64,000 bases of DNA from a virus (taxonomy: Duplodnaviria; Caudoviricetes): the IMG/VR virus record IMGVR_UViG_3300037467_000821, positions 3,162 through 67,161 of that record, one strand, 5' to 3'. Below, one piece after another: positions 3,697-26,233 of the stretch. Under the pieces are notes generated by a model. The model did no database searches and had not been told where the DNA came from. It saw only the letters and a program-made list of their open reading frames with translations. The first letter of the stretch is position 1; every line of letters starts with the position of its first letter. The translations under genes were made by a program, and so were the position numbers.

Positions 3697-3730
3697 CGCA
3701 AGGTCAAGGAACTCCGCCCAGGCGGAGTGA

Positions 3731-3809: not shown

Positions 3810-3893
3810 CAAGCAGCCCGGGTGACAAGTGATGATCCTTCGGGACGTGAAGACCTTGCACCCGGGCTGCCCCCATAGAGGAGGAGAGCAGCA

Positions 3894-4277: not shown

Positions 4278-4292
4278 ACCCTCCCTGCGGGA

Positions 4293-4303
4293 TAGGGTAG
4301 GGT
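4293..4303 (+). promoter_or_regulatory. TAGGG-TARRNT promoter-like motif
   Basis: TAGGGTAGGGT in intergenic gap; motif recurs at 10766, 15355, 36189, 43777, 63566. Confidence 0.55.
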
Positions 4304-4326
4304 AGTACCTGAGTCGCGGCTACGGT

Positions 4327-5343
4327 TTGGAGGAACCGGTGGCAGAAGAGAAATTGCTACGTCGCATTCGCGCTCTCCTGGAGAAGGCGAACGACGAGCG
4401 AAACCACGAAGGCGAGCGCGAGGCAGCATTCGCGCAGGCCCAGAAGCTGATGGACGAGCACCGCATCGAAATGGCGATGCTCGACTACGGCAAGGGCACA
4501 CCCACCCAGCTCCCGATCGAGTACGCCATCAAGCTTCCGCCCTCGGTGTTCTCGGACAAGAAATACTCCATGCTGTACTACATCGCCGAGCACTTCGGCG
4601 TCAAGTGCGTGTGGGATGGGCGCACGGCAGAACTGATCGGCATGCAGAGCTCCATCGAGATGATGGAGCTGGTCTACACCCTGGCGATCATGGAGTTCGA
4701 GACCAAGATCGAGCCGGTCTGGAGCAAGGAGAAGTCGTTCGACGCGAACGTCTTCGCATTGCACGGGGCCGGTCGCAAGTGGGTCGACATCGCACACACC
4801 GCCAACCGGCACGGCGGCAACCCGCGAACGGGTCGGCCGGGCTCCACGACCGACGGCTCGTGGCTCAAGGCGGCTTACCGCCGGGAGTGTGCGCGCCTTG
4901 GTGTTGAGCCGCGTCGTCAGACGCAGCGGCACGAGGCGTACCAGGAGAGCTTTGCGAGTAGCTTCCTGAGCACGATCATCCAGCGCCTGCACAAGATGCG
5001 GAAGGATGCCGACGAAGCCCGTGGGGGTTCGGTCGACCATCTTCCGGCAATCATGGGCGAAAAGGAGAAGGTCAACCAGGCCTTCTGGAAGAAGTATCCG
5101 CACATGCACCCGGACGCCATCAAGAAGCGCGCCGAGGAGTACAACCGAGCTCGGGAGGCTCGGTTGGCCGCCATGACGGACGAGGAGCGGGCCAGGGCCG
5201 AGAAGGAAGCCAACAGGCCGCTCAAGATCTCGCGTAGGACCACGTACGACGAGCACGGCTGGCAGGCCGGAAACCAGGCCGCGAAGCAGGTCGACCTCCT
5301 CGGCGGGAAGAACCGTGTCGCGAACCAGAAGGAGCTGAGATGA
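4327..5343 (+). CDS. DUF2786 domain protein
   Basis: N-terminal KLLRRIRALLEKA...EREAAFAQAQKLMDEHRIE. Confidence 0.8.
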   Translation: MEEPVAEEKLLRRIRALLEKANDERNHEGEREAAFAQAQKLMDEHRIEMAMLDYGKGTPTQLPIEYAIKLPPSVFSDKKYSMLYYIAEHFGVKCVWDGRTAELIGMQSSIEMMELVYTLAIMEFETKIEPVWSKEKSFDANVFALHGAGRKWVDIAHTANRHGGNPRTGRPGSTTDGSWLKAAYRRECARLGVEPRRQTQRHEAYQESFASSFLSTIIQRLHKMRKDADEARGGSVDHLPAIMGEKEKVNQAFWKKYPHMHPDAIKKRAEEYNRAREARLAAMTDEERARAEKEANRPLKISRRTTYDEHGWQAGNQAAKQVDLLGGKNRVANQKELR

Positions 5344-5558
5344 CCAAGCCTTACAAAGAAACGCTGCCGCATTCCTTCCCGAACGCTGTCTCCGTTCCGG
5401 GGGATCGGCTCGCCGTCTACGTGGCAAAGCTGATCACGCCGAACTCGCGGTTCCCGAACGGCAGCTCGTTCGCGGTGACCGTGGACAACCAGGAGGGGTA
5501 CTGCTGGCTCTGGATGTCGGATGCCAGCTTCGAGCGCGTGAAGGAGTTGGACTTGTGA
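5340..5558 (+). CDS. hypothetical protein (72 aa)
   Basis: ATGA coupling. Confidence 0.7.
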   Translation: MTKPYKETLPHSFPNAVSVPGDRLAVYVAKLITPNSRFPNGSSFAVTVDNQEGYCWLWMSDASFERVKELDL

Positions 5559-5689
5559 TGTCTCAGCAGAGCCAGCGCGACAACTCCAGAGCGAACTGGT
5601 TGGCGGTCATCGCAGGTCTCCTGGCGATGTTCCTGTTGTTCCTGATCTACCTCGCCCGCGTTCTTTCTCAGAATGGACTTCTCGGCTAG
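5558..5689 (+). CDS. small membrane protein (43 aa)
   Basis: Hand-translated; TGATG coupling, one TM. Confidence 0.55.
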   Translation: MSQQSQRDNSRANWLAVIAGLLAMFLLFLIYLARVLSQNGLLG

Positions 5690-5778
5690 TGACTGTGTTG
5701 CGGGTGGCTACGGCCACACTCTCGTTTCTCGTCTTCGTTACGACGGGCGTGGCCTGGTGGCTCGGAATAGGAGGTTGA
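5689..5778 (+). CDS. small membrane peptide (29 aa)
   Basis: Hand-translated; fills gap, hydrophobic. Confidence 0.4.
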   Translation: MTVLRVATATLSFLVFVTTGVAWWLGIGG

Positions 5779-5779
5779 A

Positions 5780-6088
5780 ATGAACGTGTACGACCACCCG
5801 GAGAAGTTCGGGTTGCAGATGATCGGTATGGTGGACAAGTCGGACGGCAACTACCAGTACGACATGTTCGTCGTCTGGAAGAACGGTCGTCGGCTCTGCT
5901 ACGGCACCGATGAAGGCTGCTCCTGTCCGACGAACTTCGAAGGCCAGGGGGTCAACGACCTGACGCTGGCTCCGAAGGCTGACGTCATCAAGGCGCTCAA
6001 GGAATGGGCGGCCGAGGACGCGACCCGCGAGAGGGAAGCCCTCGACGCAGCGGTCGTGGAGCTCTGCTTGAAGATCCGCGCAGCCTGA
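5780..6088 (+). CDS. hypothetical protein (102 aa)
   Basis: GGAGG SD; GCSCP motif. Confidence 0.75.
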   Translation: MNVYDHPEKFGLQMIGMVDKSDGNYQYDMFVVWKNGRRLCYGTDEGCSCPTNFEGQGVNDLTLAPKADVIKALKEWAAEDATREREALDAAVVELCLKIRAA

Positions 6089-6513
6089 TGTACCGGCAGG
6101 CGGTGCTACGGGAGCTCTGGGACGAGCTCGACTCCGTCATCTACCGCCTGATGACGGATGGCTGGGAGAAAGGGCCGATGTCAGCGGCCGACATGAAAGC
6201 ATGGGGAGAGCAGCGAGGCCAGGCCCAAGGCCTGGTCTTCGCGATCGCCATGGTGTATAACATGTCCGAGCCCAACACGGAGTGGGTACGGCAAGAGGCA
6301 ATGCGGCGCTGGGAGGCCAGCCTTGGAGAGCAGACCCCTATCAGCTGTCGAGAGATCCGTCTTGTACTTCGCGACCGTGGCTGGCGTCATCATGATGATC
6401 GCATTCGTGGTGACCGGGAAGTGGTGGGCTCTCGCAATCGGAGCCGCATTCGGAGCGCTCGGGTACGGCTTGGAACGGTTCGTCGAGTCGCGGGAGGAAA
6501 AGGAGAGCAATGA
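6088..6513 (+). CDS. hypothetical protein (3' part overlaps next gene)
   Basis: TGATG coupling at 6088; last ~60 codons look non-native. Confidence 0.55.
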   Translation: MYRQAVLRELWDELDSVIYRLMTDGWEKGPMSAADMKAWGEQRGQAQGLVFAIAMVYNMSEPNTEWVRQEAMRRWEASLGEQTPISCREIRLVLRDRGWRHHDDRIRGDREVVGSRNRSRIRSARVRLGTVRRVAGGKGEQ

Positions 6514-6523
6514 GCAGCCGTGA
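6323..6523 (+). CDS. membrane protein (66 aa, 2 TM)
   Basis: Two hydrophobic segments. Confidence 0.55.
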   Translation: MESRPLSAVERSVLYFATVAGVIMMIAFVVTGKWWALAIGAAFGALGYGLERFVESREEKESNEQP

Positions 6524-7139
6524 CAAGGCACTGGCCCACATGCGGCGCCAGTACAGCAAGACCGCCACCCAGGCGCAGTTCCACGGCTGGGAGGTCGGAT
6601 ACGATCTCAAGATGGAGTACGAGGGTTCCAACGAGGACCGCCTGGAGCTGACCATCACACGCGGCCAGGAGAAGATCACGATTTGGTGGCAGGCAGGACA
6701 GCTCCGGGAAGCGCCGGAGTACACGTTCGCTGGAGCCGTCACCAAGCTCCGCAACCACTCCGCCGTGCTGCAGCAGATGGAGCAGAAGCCGGACCCGGCC
6801 CGAGCCAAGAAGCGCATGGAGCGCGCGATGGCGAAGACCGGCGAGAGGTTCGATCTGGTGGAGGTCATCCGCGACCTACCGTGGGAGCCGGACGAGCTCG
6901 ATGACAAGGCTCTGCTCCGGATGTGCTACGGGAAAACGCTGACTTGGCGCAACTCGATCACGGGCGGCGTCGAGATCGACGTCGTCAAGGCCGACCTGGA
7001 GAATCCGAGGTCCGGGCCGAACTGGAACAAGATCAACTACAAGGTCTCGCACTCCTCGGCGGGGAGGCGCGTGATCCAGTTCGTCGGCCACAGCGGTTAC
7101 CGCGCGGTGGGCGTGGACGCGTTGCTGCGGGTGGGATGA
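6510..7139 (+). CDS. hypothetical protein (209 aa)
   Basis: High-GC3 codon usage, SD GGAG. Confidence 0.8.
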   Translation: MSSRDKALAHMRRQYSKTATQAQFHGWEVGYDLKMEYEGSNEDRLELTITRGQEKITIWWQAGQLREAPEYTFAGAVTKLRNHSAVLQQMEQKPDPARAKKRMERAMAKTGERFDLVEVIRDLPWEPDELDDKALLRMCYGKTLTWRNSITGGVEIDVVKADLENPRSGPNWNKINYKVSHSSAGRRVIQFVGHSGYRAVGVDALLRVG

Positions 7140-14623: not shown

Positions 14624-15340
14624 ATGCCCAGGTTCAAGGTCGAAGGCTTCGGCAACGAGGTGAAGGAGGCCGAGGCGGGGAGTTTCGCTCCGTATGACGG
14701 CCCCATCCCGCCGAAGAACACCCTGCTGCGGGTGAAGGTCAAGCAGTTGAAGATGAAGGTCAACAAGAACAACAACTTCATGCTCAACTGCGTCGTCGAG
14801 GTGGACATGCCGGAAGGCCACCCGAGCGCCAAGTACAACGGCTGCCCGGCGTGGTGGAACGGCAACCTCACCAAGGAGAGCGCGGGCTACGTCAACGCGT
14901 TCCTCAAGTCCATCGCGGGCTCGGAGATCAAGGGCAAGAAGCTGATCAACGAGTTCTGGGACAAGGGCGTGAACCTCATCGGCGGCAACAAGCCGACCAA
15001 GGAGAACCCGCTCGGGATCGCCGCGATCGGGTCGATGAAGATCGACGCCGACAACCCGCCGACCGGCTACATCCTTTCCAAGACCAAGAAGAACTTCCAG
15101 GACAAGTCCATCACCGAGATGGACGTGGCCGAGTGGGTTCTTCCGAAGTCCGCGACGGAGGGCGAGAAGGTCGACGATGACGGTGAGGTCGTCGACGAGG
15201 TCGAGGAAGAGGACGGCGTCGAGGTCGAGCAGGAGGACAGCGACGTCACCGACGAGGACGACGAGAACGACACCGACGAGGACGACGAGAACGACACCGA
15301 CGAGGACGACGGCCAGTACTCCGACGAGCCGCCGTTCTAA
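14624..15340 (+). CDS. single-stranded DNA-binding protein-like (DUF669-type)
   Basis: Beta-rich N-domain, long acidic tail ending YSDEPPF; follows AAA ATPase. Confidence 0.7.
   Translation: MPRFKVEGFGNEVKEAEAGSFAPYDGPIPPKNTLLRVKVKQLKMKVNKNNNFMLNCVVEVDMPEGHPSAKYNGCPAWWNGNLTKESAGYVNAFLKSIAGSEIKGKKLINEFWDKGVNLIGGNKPTKENPLGIAAIGSMKIDADNPPTGYILSKTKKNFQDKSITEMDVAEWVLPKSATEGEKVDDDGEVVDEVEEEDGVEVEQEDSDVTDEDDENDTDEDDENDTDEDDGQYSDEPPF
15247..15310 (+). repeat. 24-bp tandem repeat (about 2.7 copies) encoding TDEDDEND
   Basis: CACCGACGAGGACGACGAGAACGA repeated directly. Confidence 0.85.
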
Positions 15341-15354: not shown

Positions 15355-15453
15355 TAGGGTAGGGGTGCCGCGCGGGCCAGAGCTAGACGGGCGCGGCCAA
15401 GTGGGTAAACGCCGCCAGCAGCCCCTGCTCCACACTGGACGGAGGACCAGTGT
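15355..15453 (+). promoter_or_regulatory. TAGGGTAGGG promoter-like motif and RBS/start-codon hairpin
   Basis: Motif 15355-15364; ACACTGG/CCAGTGT stem (15432-38/15447-53) buries the GTG start with GGAGG in the loop. Confidence 0.5.
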
Positions 15454-15989
15454 TCACTCTGTTGCCCTACAAGGGCTACATGAAGACCGCCGAGTGCATG
15501 ACTGACTGGGACCTGAAGTCCCAGCTCTGGACGGTCAGCAACATCTTCCGAGGGCCGCGATTCACCGAGCACTCGATGATCCCTGGTATGTGGAAGGGAT
15601 ACATCTTCCAGCTGGTCTGCTACGGCTTGTCTCTCAGCTGGCACGCGCAGCAGCGTGGCCTGGAGGGGTGGCCCAAGGAAACCAAGCACATCGCGCAGTT
15701 TCGCCACATCAAGGACTCTTCGTCCAAGCCGCCGTGGATCGGCGATCCCTGGGTGCACCGGAGCCATCGGTCCCGCCTCCTTGGGCGGGAGGATTCAGAG
15801 CATTACGAGCCGCTGTTTCCCGGAACGCCGCTGAAGATGCCTACGATCTGGCCGAAGCTGGACGACAGCGACAGCCGGGGCTACAAGCTCTACGTCGACG
15901 TCGGCGATAAGTGGCTCGTCGATCGCAAGCTGTACTTCATGCCCGAGGGCATCTACCTCGGCAAGGACCGGGAGGTACTGGAAGAATGA
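15450..15989 (+). CDS. MSMEG_6728 / pyrimidine-dimer DNA glycosylase-like protein (divergent)
   Basis: MFTLLPY start, MWKGY, PPWIGDPWVHRSHRSRLL, EHYEPLFP motifs. Confidence 0.75.
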   Translation: MFTLLPYKGYMKTAECMTDWDLKSQLWTVSNIFRGPRFTEHSMIPGMWKGYIFQLVCYGLSLSWHAQQRGLEGWPKETKHIAQFRHIKDSSSKPPWIGDPWVHRSHRSRLLGREDSEHYEPLFPGTPLKMPTIWPKLDDSDSRGYKLYVDVGDKWLVDRKLYFMPEGIYLGKDREVLEE

Positions 15990-16336
15990 GCCAGCGACAC
16001 AAGATCACGTGGTTCAAGCGGGACCACGGCGACAAGTGGCAGTGGCAGGGTTTCGAGGAGGCGCTGCAGACCGACGACGACGTCACGAATTGGTTCGACG
16101 GTCTCATCAAGCAGTACGGCGACGACGCGCCGGAATCCCCGGAGATCTTCGTTCTCGACCTGGAGCACCTGGACGAGCTGAGCGGCGCGTACGAGCCCGG
16201 CGAGGCCGAGATCGAGCTCCAGCTGCTGCGCGGCTGGCTGGAGGAGGTGGTCGACATCGACAGCATCACCGTCGAGGAGGAGTTCGACGAGTACCGCGCC
16301 CGCAAGATCTCGGAGGCACAGGAGGTCAACGAGTGA
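15986..16336 (+). CDS. acidic hypothetical protein (116 aa)
   Basis: ATGA coupling. Confidence 0.75.
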   Translation: MSQRHKITWFKRDHGDKWQWQGFEEALQTDDDVTNWFDGLIKQYGDDAPESPEIFVLDLEHLDELSGAYEPGEAEIELQLLRGWLEEVVDIDSITVEEEFDEYRARKISEAQEVNE

Positions 16337-17130
16337 GGGTCGCAATCCTGGGCTGCGGTCCTGCAGGTCTGATGGCGGCACACGCCGCTGTCATCGAGGG
16401 CCACGAGGTTGACATCATCTCCAAGCGTCGCAAGTCCGAGATGTTCGGCGCGCAGTACCTGCACAAGCCGATCCCGAGCCTGCCCGAGGTTTCCAGCGGT
16501 ATCGTCTTGTACAGGCTGGAGGACGGTACGCACGAGGAGTACCGGCTGAAGGTCTACGGCCATGAGTTCGGCGGCCAGGTCAGTACGCAGCAGTTCGGAG
16601 AGCCGCATGACGCCTGGGACATCCGTGCGACGTACAACTCCCTCTGGGATCTGTATTTCGAACGGATCAAGTCCGCCGAGTGGGATCGGAGCAACTCGCA
16701 TGTGCTCACCGAGCAGATCGTCGTGAACTACGACATGGTGATCAGCTCGCTTCCCCGCCCGGTGCTGTGCTTCAACCCGCAGCACCAGTTCGCCTCGAAG
16801 AAGATCTGGGCTGTCGGTGACGCTCCGGAGCGCGGCGTGTTCGTACCTTTCAGGGTGGAGAACATGAACGTGATCTGCAGCGCCTCTCCGGAAGTTGGCT
16901 GGTACCGCGCCTCGAACATCTTCGGGTACGGCACCGTGGAGTGGGCTCTCCGGAAGAAGCCGCCGGTCGCGGGCGTGTCCGTGGTAGTCAAGCCTCTGGC
17001 CACCGACTGCGATTGCTGGCCGATGATCAGGCACGTCGGCCGATACGGCAAGTGGAAGAAGGGCGTGTTGTCTCACACCGCGTACTTCGATACCCTCGAC
17101 TACGTCGTCAAGGGAGTTTTCATCCAGTGA
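16333..17130 (+). CDS. FAD-dependent oxidoreductase (265 aa)
   Basis: Rossmann VAILGCGPAGLMAA and C-terminal VGRYGKW. Confidence 0.85.
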   Translation: MRVAILGCGPAGLMAAHAAVIEGHEVDIISKRRKSEMFGAQYLHKPIPSLPEVSSGIVLYRLEDGTHEEYRLKVYGHEFGGQVSTQQFGEPHDAWDIRATYNSLWDLYFERIKSAEWDRSNSHVLTEQIVVNYDMVISSLPRPVLCFNPQHQFASKKIWAVGDAPERGVFVPFRVENMNVICSASPEVGWYRASNIFGYGTVEWALRKKPPVAGVSVVVKPLATDCDCWPMIRHVGRYGKWKKGVLSHTAYFDTLDYVVKGVFIQ

Positions 17131-17795
17131 GACACAACGGCGAAGGCCCGGTGATCGGGCTCGATGTGGACGGTACGCTCGGTGACTACCACGGGCATTT
17201 CCTGCGGTTCGCAGAGGGGTGGCTGGGAAGGGAGATGCCCGACCCTGTCACGATCAATCCGGGCCTCCCGTTGCACAAGTTCATGAAAACCAGCAAGAGC
17301 ACCTACCGCAAGATCAAGCTGGCTTACCGCGAAGGCGGACTGAAGCGCTCGATGCCGTGCTACGAAGGAGCCCGGGATTTGGCGTACCGGCTGCGCCAGT
17401 GGCAGTGCGAGGTATGGATCTGCACCTCAAGGCCGTACCTGGCACACGGCCCGATCGTCGGCGACACACAACACTGGCTCCGACGTAACAAGATCCAGCA
17501 CGATAACATCATCTGGGGCGAACACAAGTACCGTACGCTCCGGAAGATGGCGGGCAACCGCGTGGTGGGTGTGCTGGAGGACCTGCCGGTGATGGTTCGG
17601 CAGGCCACGGACAACAAGATTCCGGTGCTCCTTCGCACACAGCCGTATAACCGCTGGCTGGAGGAAGTACCTCCCGTTCAGCTGATGGGATCGGGGCTAG
17701 ACGTTCCGCCGGTCATGCGTGTAGATGACCTATGGCAGGCCATCGGCGGATTCGCCACTCTCGTGGAGAAATGGAAGCGAGAGAACATTGCCTGA
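17127..17795 (+). CDS. HAD-superfamily phosphatase (5'-nucleotidase-like)
   Basis: GLDVDGTL motif I, CTSRP motif II, LEDLP motif IV. Confidence 0.85.
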   Translation: MRHNGEGPVIGLDVDGTLGDYHGHFLRFAEGWLGREMPDPVTINPGLPLHKFMKTSKSTYRKIKLAYREGGLKRSMPCYEGARDLAYRLRQWQCEVWICTSRPYLAHGPIVGDTQHWLRRNKIQHDNIIWGEHKYRTLRKMAGNRVVGVLEDLPVMVRQATDNKIPVLLRTQPYNRWLEEVPPVQLMGSGLDVPPVMRVDDLWQAIGGFATLVEKWKRENIA

Positions 17796-18870
17796 TTACA
17801 GTAAGGCTAAGGAGGCCGTGAGCCAGTCCATCTCAGCTTTCGATGCCGAGCATTTCGCCGAGGCGTTGCGACGCAAGGCGATGTACCCGGCGCACAAGAA
17901 CTGCCCGCAACCGCGCTACGATTGGGCGCAGGGCCCCGTATGTGGCTGTGGAACGCCGTTGATGGGAAGCAACCCGCCAGTGGGCGGGGAAGGAGAGCAG
18001 AAGGATATGAGGGTTTACGAGAGGGATTTGGTGCAGGCACCGATTCCCGCCCTCCTCAGGGACGGCTCGTTGTTGTACCTCCCGGGAAAGGGCTGGTTCC
18101 GGTTCGACGGCAATCTCTCCAGCGGATGCTGGCAGATCCTCGTCAACCCGGACGTCGAGCCGTACTGGGGCGACCCGTTGAACCGCTGGACGCCGCTCAA
18201 GAAGGGCGAACGGGTCCAGATCATCGGAGGCGAGCACTTCGTCAACTGGCTCGGATCCGCCCAGGGCGAGATGGTGGACGGCACCGAGCAGGTGATCGTC
18301 GATGGTAAGGACTCGCCGTGGTCGTTCAGCCCGAAGTACCTGGTCCGAGTGCAGGACCTCACCGACGCGCATCTTGAAGCTACGGTCAAGGGCACATTCT
18401 CGAACATGGCCGACGAACCCATCGAGATGGGCCCTGGACACGTCATGCACAGCGTTCCTGACACCGACTACGAGCACGAGCTCGCGGCAGGTGTGTACGG
18501 GGAGGACGAGGTGAACGAGCACAAGCAGATCGTCCTGGCCCTCCCGATCAAGGCCATCCCGCCGACGGAAGCCTGCCACTTCATCTTCGGTGACGAGATC
18601 AACCAGGCTTTCCTGGTGGACTGGTGCATGCAGTTCATCAAGAAGCAGATGGACTACGGCGACAGCGCCAACGACCTCGGCATGGAGGGGCAGTACGCCG
18701 AGCTGCACCGCAAGATCGGCAAGCTCCGCCGGGCCATGTGGGAGGGCAAGCCTCTCGTCAATGAGGGACTGGAGGAAGTTCTGATGGATCTCATCGGGCA
18801 CTGCTTCCTGTCCCTTCTCTTCCTCAAGAGGCCGAGCATCACTCGTTACAAGAAGGGAAGCAACAAGTGA
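17788..18870 (+). CDS. multidomain protein with C-terminal Nmad1/DUF1599 (all-alpha NTP pyrophosphohydrolase-like) domain
   Basis: FIKKQMDYG...RKIGKL...EEVLMDLIGH; start codon uncertain. Confidence 0.7.
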   Translation: MPDYSKAKEAVSQSISAFDAEHFAEALRRKAMYPAHKNCPQPRYDWAQGPVCGCGTPLMGSNPPVGGEGEQKDMRVYERDLVQAPIPALLRDGSLLYLPGKGWFRFDGNLSSGCWQILVNPDVEPYWGDPLNRWTPLKKGERVQIIGGEHFVNWLGSAQGEMVDGTEQVIVDGKDSPWSFSPKYLVRVQDLTDAHLEATVKGTFSNMADEPIEMGPGHVMHSVPDTDYEHELAAGVYGEDEVNEHKQIVLALPIKAIPPTEACHFIFGDEINQAFLVDWCMQFIKKQMDYGDSANDLGMEGQYAELHRKIGKLRRAMWEGKPLVNEGLEEVLMDLIGHCFLSLLFLKRPSITRYKKGSNK

Positions 18871-19475
18871 AGGCTCTTCCGATTTGGGGTGGTCGTCTCA
18901 CCGAGGAGGACGACAACCCGATGGGATTGATCCAGTTCGCGCTCGATCGCAAGATTCCGGACTGGGTGGAAGCTGACCTTTCGAAGCCGGTGATCGACAT
19001 CGGTCCGGGTACCAAGTTCAACCAGATGGCCGACAAGATCGTCGACTACCCCGAGTTCAACCTCGACGGCCAGCTCTCGGTGGAGGTCGAGTGGACATCG
19101 GAATCGGGGATCACCGCGAGTGGCCGAGACCCGTTGCCGTTCGGTAAGGACGAGGTCGGCGGCATCTTCGCGATCAACGTCCTGGAGCACCTCTGGGATC
19201 CGCGCCACCTGATCGACGAGGCCGCGCGTGTGCTGGCGCCGGGGTGCCCGTTCACGATCTTCGTGCCGCACCCCGACTCGGTGATGTACAAGCAGGATCT
19301 CGACCACAAGAGCCGCTTCGTCCTGGACACCTGGGACAACTACCTGAACAGCCCCTACTACGAGAAGGGGCGTAGCCGTCCGCCTCTGCGGGTCGGCTTC
19401 AACATGATCATGGCCGTCAAGGAGGACAACGTCGGCATCCTCACCCAGCTGATCAAGACGGGAGAGCCGCGATGA
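18867..19475 (+). CDS. class I SAM-dependent methyltransferase (Methyltransf_11-like)
   Basis: IDIGPG, LPF, NVLEHL, EAARVLAPG motifs. Confidence 0.8.
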   Translation: MKALPIWGGRLTEEDDNPMGLIQFALDRKIPDWVEADLSKPVIDIGPGTKFNQMADKIVDYPEFNLDGQLSVEVEWTSESGITASGRDPLPFGKDEVGGIFAINVLEHLWDPRHLIDEAARVLAPGCPFTIFVPHPDSVMYKQDLDHKSRFVLDTWDNYLNSPYYEKGRSRPPLRVGFNMIMAVKEDNVGILTQLIKTGEPR

Positions 19476-19660
19476 GCGAGGAGAAGAGCAAGGACGACCG
19501 GACCGAGGGGCAGAAGGAGCTCGACGAGGCGCTGTACCGCGTCCGGGTCGAGCTCGTCGGCGCGGTCGGTGACGTCATCAAGGCGTTGACGCCAGTCTTT
19601 TCGGAGGCCAACAAGGTCATCCAGGCGCTCGTGAAGATCTCTCGGGAGGGCAGGAAGTGA
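19472..19660 (+). CDS. hypothetical protein (62 aa)
   Basis: ATGA coupling. Confidence 0.7.
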   Translation: MSEEKSKDDRTEGQKELDEALYRVRVELVGAVGDVIKALTPVFSEANKVIQALVKISREGRK

Positions 19661-20385
19661 AGCACGGACTGATCGTCGGCGGCAAGTCCGAGGGCGGGAT
19701 CGGGCAGGCCTGCGAGAGCTGGTTCTCGGTCGACCCACGCTTCAACAGCGTGAACTGGTACGTGCCGTCCGCGGAGGAGCTGGATGTCCGAAACGACAAC
19801 CACATCAACGACTACATCGAGCGCGCCGACGAGCACGGAGTCAGCGGCTTCGACTACGTCGTGTACGCGGCGGGGGTGAACGGGCTCTGCTGGGCAGACG
19901 AGCTCTACATGCTCGAGATGGTCGACCTGTTCAAGGTCAACGTGTTCGGCTTCATTTCGCTGCTCGGGCAGATCCGGGCAACCTGGCCGGGGAAGAACTT
20001 CTCGGCCGTGGCGATCTCGTCGGACGCCGCCTACACGCCGATGCGCGGATCGGTGAACTACTGCGCCAGCAAGGCTGCTCTCGACATGGCAGTCAAGACG
20101 CTGGCACGGGAGTGGAACGTTCCGGAAGAGCTCGAGAAGGGTTCCGTCCGGGTCAACGCCGTTGCGCCGGGCATGGTGGAAGACACACCCATGTCCAGGT
20201 ACATCGAGGAGACGGTGCCCTCGTTCCGAGGCTGGACGGCGGAGAAGGCGCTCGCCTACGAGCAGAGCATGCAGCCGATGGGTCGCCGAGCCGACAAGGC
20301 CGAGGTGGCCCACCTGGTCGCCGACGTCCTGTACGGCCCGAACTACCTCAACGGCGCCATCGTCCCGCTGACGGGCGCCAAGTAG
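19657..20385 (+). CDS. SDR-family NAD(P)-dependent oxidoreductase
   Basis: GGxxxGGIG, YAAG, ISSDAA, YCASK (YxxxK), VNAVAPG. Confidence 0.92.
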   Translation: MKHGLIVGGKSEGGIGQACESWFSVDPRFNSVNWYVPSAEELDVRNDNHINDYIERADEHGVSGFDYVVYAAGVNGLCWADELYMLEMVDLFKVNVFGFISLLGQIRATWPGKNFSAVAISSDAAYTPMRGSVNYCASKAALDMAVKTLAREWNVPEELEKGSVRVNAVAPGMVEDTPMSRYIEETVPSFRGWTAEKALAYEQSMQPMGRRADKAEVAHLVADVLYGPNYLNGAIVPLTGAK

Positions 20386-20406
20386 CCTCAGCCTCTGGCT
20401 GACTCT

Positions 20407-20447
20407 GGAGCCGGGTACTGCCACCCCGACAACCCGGCTCCGGGGTG
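20407..20447 (+). promoter_or_regulatory. 10-bp hairpin with C-rich loop (terminator or regulatory switch)
   Basis: GGAGCCGGGT/ACCCGGCTCC; loop CACCCC complementary to adjacent GGGGTG. Confidence 0.5.
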
Positions 20448-20463
20448 AACGAGAGGAGAGCAG

Positions 20464-20916
20464 ATGGATTTCCTTCCGAACGAAGTGGAAATGAGGTCCG
20501 GGGGTTATCTCGGCGAGAAACGCATCAACATCGACATCTTTCTGAGCGAAGCGCCCGGACCCCGGAATGAGCGAGCCTGCCGAGTGCCTATCACCTCCGA
20601 TGCGCTCGATTACGCTTTCGAGCGCGAGGGCATCGACGGCGTTCGAAGCGTCCTGGAGATGGCGATGCGCCAGATCACCGACATCGCCATCAACGAGCTC
20701 CTGAAGGAATACCAGAAGGAGGCGCAGCGCCGGATCGAGCAGGAACGAAAGGCGAGAATGGGACCGCTGGGGTTCCTGGGAGACATCGCCGTGGCCCTGC
20801 ACGAGAAGCGAACTGGAAGGAGCCAGCGCGATGCCGATCGAAGGCATGAATGCGAAGACAGGTGCTGTGAAGCCTGCAACAACGGAACCTGCGATCACCC
20901 CGAGTGCCACAGTTGA
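20464..20916 (+). CDS. hypothetical protein with Cys-rich C-terminus
   Basis: GGAGAG SD. Confidence 0.7.
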   Translation: MDFLPNEVEMRSGGYLGEKRINIDIFLSEAPGPRNERACRVPITSDALDYAFEREGIDGVRSVLEMAMRQITDIAINELLKEYQKEAQRRIEQERKARMGPLGFLGDIAVALHEKRTGRSQRDADRRHECEDRCCEACNNGTCDHPECHS

Positions 20917-21154
20917 CATCTGCCTCCTGACGTGCAGCTGTAGCACACCGTGCTGCGAGGTTGACATCGGCGTCGGCTATGCCAACTGTGGCGCACAGCA
21001 CTGTACCGTTCATGCCTGCCCAGAAAACCAGGGCGTTCCGTCCTATGACACGTACACCGGAAAGAGCATGACCTCTTCCGAGATCGACCGGTACCAGGAC
21101 GGCGACCTGCAGGGCCTCCTGCGGCAGGACAAAGTTAGGGGGCGAAAGATCTAA
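20831..21154 (+). CDS. Cys-rich hypothetical protein
   Basis: CxxxCxC..CC..C..HC..HxC; start uncertain (overlap). Confidence 0.55.
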   Translation: MPIEGMNAKTGAVKPATTEPAITPSATVDICLLTCSCSTPCCEVDIGVGYANCGAQHCTVHACPENQGVPSYDTYTGKSMTSSEIDRYQDGDLQGLLRQDKVRGRKI

Positions 21155-21155
21155 C

Positions 21156-24100
21156 ATGGAGTACGTCTCTCTTCACCACCACAGCACGTTCAGCTACATG
21201 GACGGCTATGGCACTCCGGACGAGCACGTCGCTAGGGCTGCGGAGCTCGGGATGACGGCTCTGGCGCTGACCGAACACGGCAACGTCTCCTCGCACGTCA
21301 AGCTTGAGAAGGCGGCTAACGCCGCTGGCATCAAGCCGATCTATGGCGCTGAGCTCTACACCGCGCCTGGAAGGCACCGGTCGAAATGGCACCTCACCGC
21401 CCTGGCGGAAACGCAGGAGGGCTACCAGAACCTGAACCGGATCGTCAGCCGCTCGTGGTCCGAGAACTTCTACCAGTGGCCCACCGCTACCGCCGAGATG
21501 ATCCGCGAGCACAGCTCTGGCCTGATATTGACGTCCGGTTGCGCCGACTCGCTGCTCAGCTGTACCTTGCTGGGCGGGAAGAGCAATGGCGAGAAGCGTA
21601 CGACCGCTACATCGGACGACATGAAGGCAGCCGAGGGCGTCATCCGGTACTTCCAGGATTTGGTTGGCAAGGACAACTACTTCTTGGAAGTACAGCAGTT
21701 TCCCGAGCTGGAACGCACGTGCACGCTGAATCCTGCCTTCGCAGAGTTGTCTGCGAGGACGGGGGCACCCCTGGTCGCTACGGCGGACTGCCACTACCCG
21801 TACCCGGACGACAACGAGATGCAGAAGATCTTGCACGCTGCAGGTCGTGGTCTCGGGACGGTGGCGAAGGCGGAGGCGGGGTGGGAATACGACATTCGGT
21901 TGACGCCACCGACCAGCGACCAGCAAATCCTGCAGGCCCTGGTTGGTACCGGTTTGACAGCTTCGCAGGCGTGGCAGTCAATCGAATCTACGAAGAACAT
22001 CGCGATGCGTTCTTCCGTCGTCTTGCCCAAGAACGAGCTGCTGCGTTTCCCTCTGTCCGTCGGATACAATTCACCCAAAGATCTCCTCTGGGACAAGATC
22101 CGGGATGGATGGAAGTATCGTATGCGGACGAACCGGGTCTTCCGCCGAATGATGGCGGACCCGGCGATGAAGCAGGCCGCATCTGACAAGCTGTTTTACG
22201 AGATGTCGGTGATCGGCGACAAGGACGGCTTCTGCGACTACTTCCTGATGCTAGCCCAGGTGGTCGCATGGGCAAAGGATCAGGGCATCGCCGTCGGGCC
22301 CGCGCGTGGCAGTGCGGCGGCGAGCCTGGTTCTGTTCCTGATCCGCATCACCGAGGTCAATCCCTTGATGTTCCCGACGATGGTGTTCGAGCGGTTCATG
22401 GACGTGACCCGCCTAGACATGCCCGACGTCGACCTGGATTTCGCCGATGACCGGCGGGAAGAAGTTCGGCAATTTCTGGTCCGCACGTGGGGTATTGACC
22501 GTGTCGCCAACATCGGGAACTTCGTACGGTACAAGGGAAAGAACTCGATCGACGATGTCTCCCGGGTGCACATGATCCCCAAGTGGCAGGCGGAGATCGT
22601 AAAGTCTCGGATCATCGAGAGGTCGGGCGGTGACTCGCGAGCCTCCGACTCGCTGGAAGACACCTTCAAGACATTTCCGCAGGCACAGGCGGTGCTGGAC
22701 CAGCGGCCGGAGCTCGGCTATGCCATCCGCCTGGAGGGCAACTACCGGGGGATGTCGGTGCACGCGGCCGGTATCGTCATCAGCAACAACCCGATCTCCG
22801 ACACGTGCGCCATGTACGAGCGCGAGGTCAAGGGCGAGCCGCGTGCCGTGTTGGCGTATGACAAGAAGGACGCCGAGTACCTCGGTATGCTCAAGATGGA
22901 CTTTCTTGGGCTGTCCACGATGGGCATGATCGCCATCGCGTTGGACCTGATCGGGATGAAGCTGGAGGAGCTGTATGACATCCCTCTCGACGAACCAGAG
23001 ACTCTCGCTGGTTTCAAAAGTAATGATGTTGTCGGTATTTTCCAATTCGAAGGTCGTGCCACCCGACTTGTATGTGCCGATGTCTCCCCTGACAATTTCA
23101 TGCATCTCGCGGATATCAACGCCCTTTCCCGCCCCGGGCCGCTGTTCTCCGGAATGACCGCGCAGTACGTCGAGGTCAAACACGGCCGCAAGGAAGCCGA
23201 AGCGCTGCATCCGCTGGTAGACAAGCACACCTCCTGGACCAACGGTCAGATCGTGTATCAGGAACAGGTACTCAACATCATCCGGGAGGTCGGTGGGTTC
23301 CCGGTCGCCAAGGTCGGCGACATTCGTAAGATCATCTCGCAGAAGCTCGGCGAGATGTCCTTCAACAAGATGCAGGATGAGTTCATTGACGGAGCGGCTC
23401 GTCTCCACGGTATTGACCGAGACCTGGCAGTCCGCATCTGGAAGTTCATGGTCACGTCAGCGACGTATTCATTCAACGTCGCGCACTGCGTCTCCTACAG
23501 CATGCTGGCGTTTTGGTGTATGTGGCTTAAGCGACACCATCCACTGGCTTTCTACACGGCACAGCTCCGTAAGACAGCTGAGGACAAGTGGCCGAAACTC
23601 CTGAAGGATGCCCGGAAGCACGGCGTTAATGTGCTTCCCCCGGACATCGCTATTAGCGAGGGCACCTGGGTGCCTGACTATGAGGCTGAAGCTGTACGGG
23701 CCGGTTTCACGCAGATCAAGGGGATCGGCGACAAGACTTGGGAGCGCATCGACGAGATGCGCCGAGAGGACCCGCTCGGCTTCGTCACGTGGGCGGACCT
23801 GGAGAAGGTCAAGGGCATCGGGCCCAAGACGATCGAGAAGATCGTGACGTTCTGCGAGAACCCAGACCCGTTCGGCCTGGACCGCGTTCGTGAGATCCTG
23901 AACGAGTACAGGCGCGAGCTGCGCAATCAACGCGGTGGCTGGCGCGGGTTGCCAGTGACCACGCACATGTCCGATGACATCGGTCGGCACGATTCGATCA
24001 AGGATGTCGTCTGGATGGGGATGGTCCGGAAGAAGAACTACCAGGACTATGTCGAGAACCAGCGTACCCGTACCGGTGACGAGGTCGAAGACATCCTGGC

Positions 24101-24365
24101 TCGTACCAAGGACCCACACCTCCTCACCTCGTGCGTGCTGCAGGCGTACGATGACGGTGACGAGGACGTATACCTCCGGTTCAACCGGTGGCGCTTCCCC
24201 AAGGTCAAGGACCAGATTGAATCTCTGGAACTTGACGAGCATGTCGTGCTGGTGATTGCCGACAAGAAGGACGACTTCGGCATCTCGCTACACGTGAAGC
24301 ACCTCATCGTCATCGAGCCAGATGACGAGGATGAGGTGGACGAACTAGAGGAAGAGGAAATGTGA
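21156..24365 (+). CDS. dnaE: DNA polymerase III alpha subunit (family C) with PHP domain
   Basis: HHHSTFSYMDG, TEHGN, ADCHY (PHP); GPARGSAAASL; MPDVDLDF; YQEQ; YSFNVAH. Confidence 0.97.
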   Translation: MEYVSLHHHSTFSYMDGYGTPDEHVARAAELGMTALALTEHGNVSSHVKLEKAANAAGIKPIYGAELYTAPGRHRSKWHLTALAETQEGYQNLNRIVSRSWSENFYQWPTATAEMIREHSSGLILTSGCADSLLSCTLLGGKSNGEKRTTATSDDMKAAEGVIRYFQDLVGKDNYFLEVQQFPELERTCTLNPAFAELSARTGAPLVATADCHYPYPDDNEMQKILHAAGRGLGTVAKAEAGWEYDIRLTPPTSDQQILQALVGTGLTASQAWQSIESTKNIAMRSSVVLPKNELLRFPLSVGYNSPKDLLWDKIRDGWKYRMRTNRVFRRMMADPAMKQAASDKLFYEMSVIGDKDGFCDYFLMLAQVVAWAKDQGIAVGPARGSAAASLVLFLIRITEVNPLMFPTMVFERFMDVTRLDMPDVDLDFADDRREEVRQFLVRTWGIDRVANIGNFVRYKGKNSIDDVSRVHMIPKWQAEIVKSRIIERSGGDSRASDSLEDTFKTFPQAQAVLDQRPELGYAIRLEGNYRGMSVHAAGIVISNNPISDTCAMYEREVKGEPRAVLAYDKKDAEYLGMLKMDFLGLSTMGMIAIALDLIGMKLEELYDIPLDEPETLAGFKSNDVVGIFQFEGRATRLVCADVSPDNFMHLADINALSRPGPLFSGMTAQYVEVKHGRKEAEALHPLVDKHTSWTNGQIVYQEQVLNIIREVGGFPVAKVGDIRKIISQKLGEMSFNKMQDEFIDGAARLHGIDRDLAVRIWKFMVTSATYSFNVAHCVSYSMLAFWCMWLKRHHPLAFYTAQLRKTAEDKWPKLLKDARKHGVNVLPPDIAISEGTWVPDYEAEAVRAGFTQIKGIGDKTWERIDEMRREDPLGFVTWADLEKVKGIGPKTIEKIVTFCENPDPFGLDRVREILNEYRRELRNQRGGWRGLPVTTHMSDDIGRHDSIKDVVWMGMVRKKNYQDYVENQRTRTGDEVEDILARTKDPHLLTSCVLQAYDDGDEDVYLRFNRWRFPKVKDQIESLELDEHVVLVIADKKDDFGISLHVKHLIVIEPDDEDEVDELEEEEM

Positions 24366-24463
24366 GCTGGCCTGAAGCTATTGTTTGGTGCGTAGCCCTG
24401 GCGTCCGCAGGGCTGGTTGTGGCAGCCTTCTTCAAGGCAATGGGTGGAGGCTGGGACAAGTGA
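24362..24463 (+). CDS. small membrane protein (33 aa)
   Basis: Hand-translated, GTGA overlap. Confidence 0.5.
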   Translation: MSWPEAIVWCVALASAGLVVAAFFKAMGGGWDK

Positions 24464-24633
24464 ACGGTCTACTGATGCTCCTGTTCCGGCTGTGGATCTG
24501 GAACTCCAACAGGAAGGTCGAGAAGACGTTCGTGAAGCAACTGGACCAGGAGCAGGACACCGTTCGAATCAACTGGGCGAAGGAGTTCGGAAGCGAACAC
24601 GCCCAGGGCCGACACCACCTACGGAAGAGGTAG
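24460..24633 (+). CDS. hypothetical protein (57 aa)
   Basis: GTGA overlap. Confidence 0.5.
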   Translation: MNGLLMLLFRLWIWNSNRKVEKTFVKQLDQEQDTVRINWAKEFGSEHAQGRHHLRKR

Positions 24634-24637
24634 ACTA

Positions 24638-24928
24638 ATGGCTGAGGAAATCGCGCACACGCACTACATCGCCCGGATCGTGATCGAGCGCGTGAATCAC
24701 ATGCAGGAGCCCGCGAAGAGCCACGTGCACAACTCGGAGCCGACGCCGACCGGGCGGAAGGTCACCGAGCTGGCCACGATCACGCTGCGGAACGACGAGC
24801 TCGACAGGCTCGTGGATCGGGTCACGCAGCACCTCGGGCTCATCGAGGACATCGAGGCGATCGACGACCAGCGAAAGGGCCTGCGTGGTAGCGGCATGGA
24901 CCCGCAACCGAAGTACCGGGACCGCTGA
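24638..24928 (+). CDS. hypothetical protein (96 aa)
   Basis: GAGG SD, codon pattern. Confidence 0.75.
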   Translation: MAEEIAHTHYIARIVIERVNHMQEPAKSHVHNSEPTPTGRKVTELATITLRNDELDRLVDRVTQHLGLIEDIEAIDDQRKGLRGSGMDPQPKYRDR

Positions 24929-25218
24929 TGGCCGCGATCCTGATCATCTCCTTCTACGATGACACGCATGAGGAGATCGAGTTCAACGAGGAGAACGGCA
25001 AGTACTGGAAGCCCACGATGCAGGGGCTGATGATCAAGACGAACGGGGTTCGGGGGAGCCGCACTGTTTATCCCTGGTCCTCGATTCGCAAGTACCACAT
25101 CGAAACGGAGGTCGGTCAACGTGACCGAGAACGACTCGCAGAAGAACGAGCCCAGCAAGACCATAGCTCGGTGGGCGGACGTGGCGATGTACACGAGCAA
25201 GCCGATCCAGGCGTCTGA
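24928..25218 (+). CDS. hypothetical protein (96 aa)
   Basis: TGATG coupling; 3' end overlaps thyX. Confidence 0.65.
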   Translation: MAAILIISFYDDTHEEIEFNEENGKYWKPTMQGLMIKTNGVRGSRTVYPWSSIRKYHIETEVGQRDRERLAEERAQQDHSSVGGRGDVHEQADPGV

Positions 25219-26233
25219 CGGCCCCAGGGCCGTGTTGCTTGCGGGACCGGCTGACCCGCTCGGGCTGATCGCCGCGCAGGCGAAGACGTACGTCGGTGAG
25301 TTCGTGGACGACCTGGCTGACATCACCGACGACGAGCGTCGGCACTACCTCGGAGAGATCCAGAAGACCGCGCTGGCGATGCCGCTGGAGGCGGTGCTGC
25401 TGAACTTCTCGATCACCGGCGTCACGCGCTCGTTCACCCACCAGATGGTGCGCCAGAGGACCGCCGCATACGCGCAGGAGAGCCTGCGATTCTCTGTGGT
25501 GGAGGACGGCTTCACCGACCGCGTGGCCCTCCCGCCGAGCCTGATGGGCACCACGGCGGTCTATCAGGAGCTCCTGGAGAAGGAGAAGCACGACCAGTCC
25601 TACGGTGGCGGATGGACCCCGTCTTCGCTCCGGGAAGGACTGGAGCGCGCCATGGGGAAGCAGCCGCGCGAGGAGCGGTGGCGGCAGAAGTGGGACCACG
25701 CGCTGGAGGTTCTGCAGCAGACATACGGCGAGCTGATCAACGATGGCATGCCTGCCGAAGAGGCCCGGGGCCTGCTGCCGCACAACATCACGACCCGCAT
25801 CAAGTACAACACCAACCTGCGGGCGCTGCTGGAGCACATCGGCCTCCGGACCTGCACGCAGGCGCAGTTCGAGTGGCGGGGCGTCGCGTTCCAGATGATG
25901 CTGGCGCTGCGCGAGTACGGGCGCGGGCAGGTTTACCGTGACACCTCCTACGACGATCACGGCACGCCTCGGGTGGTCCTGCGCGACTCCGCCTGGCAGT
26001 ACGACGCCATCGCCGAGCTGTTCTCGCCGATCTGCTACCGCAAGGGCAAGTGCACGATGATGGCCTCGTTCGATCGCAAGTGCTCCATCCGGGGGCGCGT
26101 CGAGGCGAACGCGTCCATCAACCGGCCCAGCACCGAGTGGGACAAGCCCCGAGAGGCGACCGCGCCCGACGACGTCTACATCGAGCCCATCCGGCCGTCA
26201 GAGTGGATGCTCGACCCGGGCGCGGCGCGGTGA
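25121..26233 (+). CDS. thyX: ThyX-like flavin-dependent enzyme (divergent thymidylate synthase)
   Basis: GVTRSFTHQMVRQRTAAYAQESLRF (RHR-x7-S variant), ARGLLP, NLRALLEHIGLRTC..AQFEW. Confidence 0.88.
   Translation: MTENDSQKNEPSKTIARWADVAMYTSKPIQASDGPRAVLLAGPADPLGLIAAQAKTYVGEFVDDLADITDDERRHYLGEIQKTALAMPLEAVLLNFSITGVTRSFTHQMVRQRTAAYAQESLRFSVVEDGFTDRVALPPSLMGTTAVYQELLEKEKHDQSYGGGWTPSSLREGLERAMGKQPREERWRQKWDHALEVLQQTYGELINDGMPAEEARGLLPHNITTRIKYNTNLRALLEHIGLRTCTQAQFEWRGVAFQMMLALREYGRGQVYRDTSYDDHGTPRVVLRDSAWQYDAIAELFSPICYRKGKCTMMASFDRKCSIRGRVEANASINRPSTEWDKPREATAPDDVYIEPIRPSEWMLDPGAAR

Follow-up and report, generated by a model that had tools for sequence, protein, structure and literature searches.

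A histidine-less ThyX and a flavoprotein operon beside a phage DnaE as a candidate pyrimidine-modification cassette

Hypermodification of phage DNA determines escape from restriction and other nuclease defences and is a source of enzymes for DNA chemistry. To our knowledge, all thymidine pathways solved to date begin with a hydroxymethylase of the ThyA type. The DNA of Bacillus phage SP-15 contains 5-(4',5'-dihydroxypentyl)uracil (PMC5977210, where the gene roles given are guesses); judging by their titles, works cited in that paper concern a ribose label in the side chain and the making of the base as a nucleoside triphosphate, and they thus form a precedent for building a C5 alkyl chain from a sugar at the nucleotide level. 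Virion DNA of the Pbunavirus phages F8 and 14-1 is left uncut by enzymes with TG in their site and contains new nucleosides of 362 and 390 U that replace about one quarter of the thymidines (PMC12191111, a 2025 preprint); its authors read these as sugar-alcohol and cyclised aldopentose derivatives of thymidine, reported that both phages are without known modification genes, and left the genes behind the marks unassigned. Here we analyse a locus in a 64-kb window (the whole stretch of DNA under study) of IMGVR_UViG_3300037467_000821, a viral metagenome record of 67,161 bp that CheckV rates as 100% complete. An operon of eight open reading frames (ORFs; 15450-20385, + strand), named A, B1, OX (a flavoprotein), HAD (a phosphatase), D, MT (a methyltransferase), F and SDR (a short-chain dehydrogenase/reductase), is followed by the gene for the replicative polymerase DnaE and by a ThyX-like gene. 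The best single reading of the operon together with the ThyX-like gene, which we hold tentatively and with less than even confidence, is a pathway for C5-pyrimidine (thymidine) modification of phage DNA; plain supply of thymidylate (dTMP) ranks close behind. We favour modification because of the remodelled ThyX, the obligate pairing of OX with HAD, the presence of tailoring enzymes and the phenotypes seen in relatives.

The ThyX-like protein matches the Thy1 domain (PF02511) at 108.8 bits (3.7e-31, cut-off 24.8, residues 43-264) and marginally misses the TIGR02170 equivalog model (87.4 bits, cut-off 87.9). We compared it pairwise with T. maritima ThyX, and a 23-sequence profile of its family with the M. 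tuberculosis and C. glutamicum enzymes. Residues Q108, R111, S121, R123, R216 and R243 do not vary across the 23 aligned sequences and correspond to Gln75, Arg78, Ser88, Arg90, Arg147 and Arg174 of T. maritima, which bind deoxyuridylate (dUMP); the M. tuberculosis residues could be aligned with them too. Relative to the canonical motifs, PFEH/LEH is replaced by PLEA, RHR by RQR, SxRY by SxRF (SLRF for SGRY) and SEHA by CTQA, so that His53, His79, His178 and Tyr91 (T. maritima numbering) are all missing. The RHR(x)7S motif reads RQRTAAYAQES, and in 31 of 31 relatives its centre is Q, T, E, N, S or G while both arginines and the serine are kept. Within this clade the position of His53 holds Ala, Phe or Ser, Tyr91 has become Phe and His178 has become Gln, and the canonical histidines are absent from the ThyX of all 31 relatives. 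His53, a conserved residue, is described as stacking on the folate pterin, hydrogen-bonding Y91 and gating the folate site (PMC11940539), and it is this H53-Y91 pair that has been lost together in the ThyX-like clade. Compared with canonical ThyX, the protein further carries an insertion of about 45 amino acids and a C-terminal extension of about 100 amino acids with three conserved cysteines; Cys245, Cys305, Cys311 and Cys321 are each kept in 21-22 of the 23 sequences, one of them adjoins the equivalent of Arg174, and these residues could be a metal site. A preliminary description of this DNA, made from the sequence alone, had named the gene a divergent ThyX, and both halves of that call hold, the family by the score of its Thy1 domain and the divergence by the altered catalytic and folate-site positions in the alignments, which are the same in the 31 relatives.

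Counted from its first GTG, the ThyX-like ORF overlaps the preceding 96-amino-acid ORF (24928-25218) by 98 bases, and family conservation begins at about residue 18; the true start therefore probably lies 3' of 25121. In one of the relatives, a ThyX-like gene on IMG/VR contig 3300012204_000008 (18530-20539) contains an insertion of about 300 amino acids with intein-like ends and an HNH-like segment, placed right behind RQRTA in the altered RHR motif.

Outside the actinophages, the nearest ThyX proteins are those of Pantoea phage Kyle, Wifcevirus coliphages and PB1-like Pseudomonas phages. Against the actinophage profile, Kyle ThyX scores 130 bits, compared with 61 bits for canonical ThyX of solved structure. 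His53 and His79 are lacking in the ThyX of Kyle, FEC19, PB1-like phages and Rhizobium phage TM30, and the histidines are likewise absent from that of Streptomyces phage Lizz; judged by sequence, the actinophage and Gram-negative phage proteins appear to form the same histidine-less phage clade. In Kyle the gene lies in a cassette made up of a flavoprotein-like 'oxidoreductase' of 320 amino acids, ThyX, a MazG-like protein, HAD, SDR, epsilon and DnaE; E. coli phage FEC19 (Wifcevirus) has the Kyle set without MazG, and the PB1-like phage vB_PaeM-PTLAW1 has a flavoprotein-like gene of about 330 amino acids with ThyX and HAD. The SDR homologues in the Kyle and FEC19 cassettes were recovered at 5.9e-20 and 1.7e-19, and the Pbunavirus methyltransferase belongs to phrog_6636 (2.2e-85), as does the MT of the window. 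The flavoprotein-like phrog_4828 protein of these cassettes (about 330 amino acids) has an N-terminal dinucleotide-binding motif (GAGLAGL) and shares a GRFATW motif with OX. An hhalign comparison of OX with phrog_4828 gave a probability of 69% (E 4.3e-5) over 44 columns only, and hmmsearch on a 23-sequence set ranked the three phrog_4828 proteins first (E 0.001-0.06). We also considered whether the MazG-like domain of the window corresponds to the C-terminal extension of the Gram-negative HADs, but discarded this correspondence because the profile-profile probability was 1.8%, despite a weak hmmsearch hint. Rhizobium phage RHph_TM30, with a genome of 207 kb, has a ThyX in which the altered motifs read RNR and SWEF, and this gene has no flavoprotein, HAD or SDR as a neighbour.

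OX begins with M-R-V-A-I-L-G-C-G-P-A-G, the Rossmann motif for flavin adenine dinucleotide (FAD), and matches phrog_8720 at 1.8e-89. Its family comprises 569 representative clusters at E<=1e-30, all of about 265 amino acids and with zero fusions; the sequence homologues listed are all unnamed or called 'hypothetical protein', and many come from phage-sized contigs. The AlphaFold model, with a predicted local distance difference test (pLDDT) score of 95.4, points to an N-terminal GxGxxG FAD-binding domain and a substrate domain arranged as in the amine oxidase/PPOX/UGM/PHBH class. Its best fold match is UDP-galactopyranose mutase (4dsg, Z 14.1, VIA), followed at Z 12-13 by flavin monooxygenases, protoporphyrinogen oxidases and amine oxidases, none of which stands out (Foldseek, VIA), and structural matches in the protein atlas have TM 0.73-0.75 to amine-oxidase, PPOX and GLF clusters. 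As these matches form a flat list of FAD enzymes, no specific function or subfamily can be assigned from them, and a sequence search against solved structures returned Rossmann-motif noise only. The residues that are invariant in the family are GxGxxG, a GD motif, Cys146, Cys226 and Cys228.

HAD matches PF06941 (NT5C) at 27.9 bits (cut-off 24.8) and phrog_415 at 1.4e-17, with a nucleophile motif G-L-D-V-D-G-T at residues 10-16 (DxDxT). MT matches Methyltransf_11 at 26.3 bits (cut-off 21.2) and phrog_6636 at 6.7e-43, and SDR matches adh_short at 73.6 bits (1.9e-20) and phrog_3142 at 3.4e-29, with NYCASK as its YxxxK motif. The protein encoded by gene A has no Pfam match even at E 10, and its match to NF038085 (the MSMEG_6728 family, 1.6e-15) lies under that model's cut-off; its look-alikes in the protein atlas, however, fall exclusively in Pyr_excise clusters (score 0.91), and of 13 homologues, 11 match PF03013 Pyr_excise, the T4 endonuclease V family (best 1.2e-15). 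The family has a conserved N-terminus, M-x-T-x-L-P, and a homologue lies directly upstream of OX in the Microbacterium cluster EF phages; searches of solved structures with the sequence and with the family profile found nothing, T4 endonuclease V included. The label 'glycosylase-like' for gene A is thus fair as a sequence-based description. In gene D, conservation is confined to the C-terminal domain, which matches phrog_10271 at 1e-14 (residues 314-365) and reaches only 19 bits against DUF1599/PF07659 (E 0.0018, cut-off 25), although along the full profile length; 3 of 21 homologues match DUF1599 at E<=0.1. The domain is modelled as three helices (pLDDT 83.5), and its top Foldseek rows, all at E >=0.19, are AF_0060, a T. 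maritima MazG-related protein, iMazG, S-2L MazG, YpjD and HisE; short helical domains match easily, so these MazG-type rows are weak. Nmad domains were reportedly defined in a 2013 paper in NAR; our own literature search on Nmad1 gave no pertinent result. For this domain, MazG-like helical domain seems, weakly and on the strength of the model, a better name than Nmad1.

Seven of the eight gene identities put forward in the preliminary description therefore stand: besides ThyX, these are the FAD oxidoreductase (Rossmann motif and a model of the FAD-enzyme class), the HAD nucleotidase (PF06941 above its cut-off and the DxDxT motif), the methyltransferase (Methyltransf_11 above its cut-off), the SDR (its adh_short score and YxxxK motif), the phage-encoded DnaE, and the glycosylase-like gene A, this last by a transitive route only, through the homologues that match PF03013. 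The call of Nmad1 for gene D does not carry over, given the sub-threshold DUF1599 score and the few homologues that match it. For DnaE, the nucleotide matches coincide with genes annotated as DnaE-like in phages of Gordonia and Microbacterium, and the protein shares 30% identity over 847 amino acids with the FEC19 polymerase (4e-105).

We next consider how widely these genes occur together. OX is found in 126 phage records (46 from Gordonia, 36 from Microbacterium, 32 from Mycobacterium, 9 from Streptomyces, 2 from Arthrobacter and 1 from Nocardia), the gene D helical domain in 122 records whose spread over the genera is almost identical, and the long ThyX in 113 records, in about the same phages as OX. 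The gene set thus recurs as a unit in other phages, contrary to the lack of co-occurrence that the preliminary description had named among its grounds for refutation. The Microbacterium phages that carry OX are those of cluster EF, and the Mycobacterium ones include the Adjutor, PLot and Gumball group. Gene order in Mycobacterium phage Adjutor is OX, nucleotidase, methyltransferase, hypothetical, SDR, DnaE, hypothetical, ThyX, and that of Nocardia phage P3.1 is similar; Streptomyces phage Lizz has the cassette without the methyltransferase and SDR, and Microbacterium phage Hager has only an A-like gene, OX, ThyX, the helical-domain protein and DnaE. We then used tblastn to score 80 IMG/VR loci around OX homologues, counting for each gene only the loci with sufficient flank. 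HAD is the tightest partner of OX (68 of 73 loci, median offset 0.83 kb), and DnaE is present in every scored locus (50/50), as are the Cas4-like nuclease (49/49) and the RecA-like ATPase (51/51). The SDR occurs in 31 of 50, the helical domain in 34 of 65 (a lower bound), ThyX within 10.7 kb in 28 of 47, gene A in 13 of 75 and the methyltransferase in 6 of 50. The core is OX, HAD, the helical domain and ThyX beside DnaE; SDR is a frequent member, and the methyltransferase and gene A are accessory. ThyX lies 0.8-2.7 kb past OX in six loci (Hager and five metagenomic ones) and 6-10 kb past it in the remainder. The near-constant adjacency of OX and HAD, and the shift of ThyX without its leaving the neighbourhood, go a little beyond what descent would give. 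As a side observation on these phages, the cluster EF DnaE is annotated as two adjacent genes in Microbacterium phage Hager (11939-15314, 354 and 765 amino acids), an arrangement noted in the Microbacterium phage paper too.

The enzymes that open the described modification routes were also sought. In the complete 67-kb genome we found no member of the ThyA family (PF00303), although control genomes matched, and no TGT, PurZ-type adenylosuccinate synthetase, dCMP deaminase or dUTPase. General Pfam, PHROG and NCBIfam scans of about 35 ORFs, which included no dedicated models for them, returned no 5-hydroxymethyl-deoxyuridine (5-hmdU) DNA kinase and no aGPT-PPlase/amino-acid:DNA transferase, and no radical-SAM or pyridoxal phosphate (PLP) enzymes turned up in the same scans. 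The earlier statement that the canonical enzymes are missing consequently stands genome-wide for the ThyA family, TGT and the PurZ family, and for the kinase and aGPT-PPlase it extends as far as those general scans. With ThyA, TGT and the PurZ family absent, any modification would need a new entry enzyme.

The window has 62% G+C, and every long ORF is on the + strand. Its layout is siphovirus-like with a DnaE-type replication module, in which an SNF2 helicase, the Cas4-like nuclease and the RecA-like ATPase lie upstream; the operon, DnaE, ThyX and a primase-polymerase come after the Cas4/RecA genes, and the genes from terminase to tape measure come last. A nucleotide search against sequenced phages matched DnaE only, in short stretches of 70-78% identity, and the virus therefore has no close sequenced relative. 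Junctions within the operon consist of six 4-base ATGA/GTGA overlaps and one 22-nt gap with an AAGGAGG ribosome-binding site. Two unassigned ORFs and then DnaE, three small ORFs and the ThyX-like gene lie downstream (Table 1), with DnaE and the ThyX-like gene at the positions first given for them. The preliminary description had counted six coupled genes here; its coordinates and coupling were right, but the sequence reads as eight ORFs. One difference is an ORF at 16009-17130 that had been taken as one gene and is in fact B1 followed by OX, a division made because residue 110 is where the Pfam and PHROG matches start and where the B1 stop codon is overlapped by a GTG.

Table 1 Features of the candidate cassette and its surroundings in the window.
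Feature	Position	Strand	Description
Gene A	15450-15989	+	179 aa; divergent Pyr_excise-family protein (pyrimidine-dimer DNA glycosylase-like); first gene of the operon
Gene B1	15986-16336	+	116 aa; acidic; 4-base overlap with gene A and with OX
OX	16333-17130	+	265 aa; minimal FAD-binding flavoprotein; phage-specific phrog_8720
HAD phosphatase	17127-17795	+	222 aa; NT5C 5'(3')-deoxyribonucleotidase type
Gene D	17818-18870	+	350 aa; C-terminal ~100 aa (18568-18870) three-helix MazG-like/Nmad1-like
MT	18867-19475	+	202 aa; class I SAM-dependent methyltransferase, small-molecule type
Gene F	19472-19660	+	62 aa; coupled on both sides
SDR	19657-20385	+	242 aa; FabG-like short-chain dehydrogenase/reductase
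Hairpin	20402-20446	+	perfect 15-bp stem directly past the SDR stop codon
DnaE	21156-24365	+	1069 aa; DNA polymerase III alpha subunit, replicative
ThyX-like	25121-26233	+	370 aa counted from the first GTG

The hairpin is probably the terminator or attenuator of the operon, although it has no U-tract: the region 20384-20463 folds with a minimum free energy of -42.9 kcal/mol (z = -3.98), and 0 of 200 shuffles were equally stable. A scan for consensus promoters and terminators returned no promoter, and no terminator at the ends of the operon, hairpin included; the 5' intergenic region of the operon folds no better than its shuffles. Among the smaller ORFs, B1 has no Pfam or NCBIfam match and gene F no family matches, and tblastn gave 0 matches in 85 related loci both for B1 and for the lineage-specific N-terminal part of gene D (about 250 amino acids); as these three and the two ORFs that precede DnaE have no homologues or families, they were left out of the conserved cassette. 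One of those two (20831-21154, 107 amino acids), directly 5' of DnaE, is Cys-rich (C-x2-C, C-C-E), overlaps a preceding 150-amino-acid ORF by about 85 bases and has no family match. Between the RecA-like gene and the operon lies an ORF of 238 amino acids (14624-15340) without a Pfam match, which matches phrog_12070 (1.5e-20) and phrog_9460, labelled 'methyltransferase' (3e-19). Of 54 related loci, 16 contain it by tblastn, and it may belong to the module as an additional accessory gene.

One explanation for these observations, and the likeliest in our judgement, is that the operon and ThyX form a cassette for nucleotide tailoring that accompanies phage replication modules of the DnaE type, with a C5-modified deoxyuridine as its likely product. 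The ThyX variant would still bind dUMP and flavin but would use, in place of methylene-tetrahydrofolate, another one-carbon or aldehyde donor, or might alternatively release a different product, such as 5-hydroxymethyl-dUMP. HAD would strip phosphate from the adduct or from competing dTMP; the side chain would be elaborated by OX and SDR, with the methyltransferase taking part where it occurs; the MazG-like domain would act on a nucleoside triphosphate; the Pyr_excise-like protein, where present, would act on DNA; and the phage DnaE would incorporate or tolerate the product. A narrower proposal made earlier, in which two redox enzymes and a methyltransferase build the side chain, is unsupported, the methyltransferase and gene A both being accessory. 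Equally without support are the ideas that HAD and Nmad1 remove the canonical dNTP and that DnaE is adapted to a modified substrate. Another specific version, drawn by analogy and in our view a long shot, is that the histidine-less ThyX, its folate pocket remodelled, is not a methylase but a flavin-dependent reductive alkylase with a sugar-phosphate aldehyde as donor. ThyX is known to accept free formaldehyde via a flavin-N5 carbinolamine (PMC8316439); the N5 of the reduced flavin might likewise condense with a sugar-phosphate aldehyde and hand the whole chain to C5 of dUMP, after which HAD would remove the sugar phosphate and SDR, OX and the methyltransferase would finish the polyol. By our own arithmetic, adding an aldopentose (150) to deoxyuridine (228) and subtracting O (16) yields 362, the mass of the F8 nucleoside, and the hexose analogue minus 2 H gives 390, that of the 14-1 nucleoside. 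The cassette as the source of the Pbunavirus modification is an analogy and is unproven.

The interpretation as a modification pathway should be made cautiously, as several observations weigh against it. The methyltransferase and the Pyr_excise-like gene do not belong to the core. The 80 metagenomic loci represent one lineage that also shares the Cas4-like, RecA-like and DnaE genes, so that co-occurrence is confounded by descent; much of it is descent, and on its own it is weak evidence for joint function. The relation of OX to phrog_4828 is suggestive only, as judged from the profile comparisons, and TM30, whose ThyX stands without the cassette, indicates that the ThyX clade is wider than the cassette. 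In the literature on cluster D, EF or related actinophages we found no report of modified DNA in carriers of the module. The Pbunavirus mark stands in a TG context and affects about one quarter of the thymidines (PMC12191111), which points to a sequence-specific step at the DNA level, beyond ThyX alone. Finally, ThyX with a nucleotidase and a MazG-like protein also resembles a plain module for supplying deoxynucleoside triphosphates (dNTPs).

This last resemblance leads to the strongest alternative, an ordinary nucleotide-supply module, which we consider possible if somewhat doubtful: ThyX would be a working dTMP synthase with drifted folate and flavin contacts, the genes would have been inherited with the DnaE module, HAD and the MazG-like protein would regulate or clean the dNTP pool, and OX or SDR would recycle reducing equivalents or pterins for ThyX. 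The clear Thy1 domain fits such a role, as do the retained dUMP-binding arginines, Gln75 and Ser88, and since ThyA, dCMP deaminase and dUTPase are absent, the ThyX-like gene is the only thymidylate-synthase-family gene of the genome. The entire neighbourhood is syntenic across the lineage; about three quarters of Pbunavirus thymidines are ordinary (PMC12191111), so that dTMP is still needed there; and the T. maritima Y91F mutant retains flavin (PMC11940539). ThyX works without a separate reductase and regenerates tetrahydrofolate, however, which leaves the role of OX and SDR in a supply module not obvious, and neither the methyltransferase nor the Pyr_excise-like protein fits dTMP supply. The near-obligate pairing of OX and HAD also speaks against it, and the joint loss of H53-Y91, His79 and His178 in every member across phyla resembles a changed active site rather than drift.

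Two further scenarios would leave ThyX outside the modification chemistry or place the product outside DNA. In a post-replicative scheme, which seems unlikely to us, OX (perhaps with the Pyr_excise-like protein) would act on double-stranded DNA, at thymine or uracil standing in a sequence context, ThyX would supply dTMP only, and HAD and SDR would prepare the attached group. Such a scheme would account for the TG context of the Pbunavirus mark and for its presence on only part of the thymidines (PMC12191111), and the hypermodified thymidines known so far are completed on the polymer, among others by the FAD-dependent gp47 of PaMx11 (PMC8989533); a Pyr_excise-family protein comes first in the operon both here and in cluster EF phages, and the OX fold resembles those of flavin monooxygenases and amine oxidases. 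Yet no DNA-binding domain and no extra domain was detected in the 265 amino acids of OX, the Pyr_excise-like gene is found in a minority of loci, the 5-hmdU kinase and amino-acid:DNA transferase were not among the scanned ORFs, and the remodelled ThyX would be left unexplained. It is also improbable, in our estimate, that the pathway makes or alters a small molecule that never enters DNA, such as a cofactor, a signal or anti-defence molecule derived from a nucleotide, or an altered RNA base, and that the cassette lies in the early/replication region only incidentally. In its favour, the methyltransferase belongs to the class I type that acts on small molecules, enzymes of the SDR and FAD kinds serve generally in tailoring, and the solved ThyX-family chains matched by the actinophage profile include PolB (4p5a), which works in nucleoside-antibiotic biosynthesis; against this, the placement beside the replicative polymerase is constant over unrelated host ranges, the HAD is of the deoxynucleotidase type and the dUMP-binding residues of ThyX are conserved.

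Were the C5-pyrimidine modification reading true, a ThyX-based route would represent a second, independent entry to thymidine hypermodification and would provide gene candidates for the sugar-alcohol thymidine of PB1-like therapy phages. The candidate cassette is not limited to Gram-negative myoviruses: a fuller form, whose flavoprotein is well folded and belongs to an orphan family with over 550 sequence clusters, is present in a large actinophage lineage that includes cluster D mycobacteriophages and Gordonia, Microbacterium, Streptomyces, Nocardia and Arthrobacter phages. Many of the carriers are in culture collections and are genetically tractable in Mycobacterium smegmatis, which makes the proposal directly testable; cultured carriers include Mycobacterium phages Adjutor, PBI1 and Gumball, Microbacterium phage Krampus, Gordonia phage Wojtek and Streptomyces phage Lizz. 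If the alkylase version is true, a sugar-alcohol thymidine not yet described would be present in the cluster D mycobacteriophages and in over 100 further actinophages; if the modification reading is false, there would still be a large clade of ThyX proteins able to function without the histidines considered 'universal' for this enzyme.

Comparison with known systems places the locus nearest to the Gram-negative phage cassettes. The Pbunavirus, Wifcevirus and Kyle cassettes have in common with the window PHROGs 85 (ThyX) and 415 (HAD), with 6636 (methyltransferase) shared by Pbunavirus as well; Kyle and FEC19 further share the FabG-like SDR and the position adjoining a DnaE-type polymerase, and Kyle also a MazG-type helical protein. 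They differ in that the Gram-negative flavoprotein belongs to phrog_4828 whereas OX belongs to phrog_8720, in that the Gram-negative HAD has a long C-terminal extension whereas the helical domain of the window is encoded by a separate gene, and in that the Pbunavirus methyltransferase sits elsewhere in the genome whereas MT lies inside the operon. Canonical ThyX (T. maritima, M. tuberculosis and C. glutamicum) shares with the window protein the Thy1 fold and the dUMP residues. In SP-15, the SDR gene gp129 and the Thy1-family gene gp130 overlap by 1 base at stop and start codon, and a hypothetical gene of 691 amino acids comes next (3026-7045 of the locus); as in the window, an SDR gene is coupled to or near a Thy1-family gene, and the SDR belongs to phrog_3142 in both, but unlike in the window no OX or NT5C homologue lies beside gp130. 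We examined gp130 as a close relative of the window ThyX and rejected it at 5.9 bits against the profile, so the likeness to SP-15 is one of analogy only. The 5-hmdU-route clusters of M6, ViI, PaMx11, SP10 and PhiW-14 (PMC5889632, PMC8989533) are likewise phage enzyme clusters in a replication or nucleotide region with tailoring steps, and the FAD-dependent gp47 of PaMx11 (PMC8989533) has a counterpart of the same cofactor class in OX. Those phages enter through a ThyA-family dUMP hydroxymethylase, whereas entry in the window would be through a ThyX-family protein, and the expected outcome would be common to both, namely DNA protected from nucleases.

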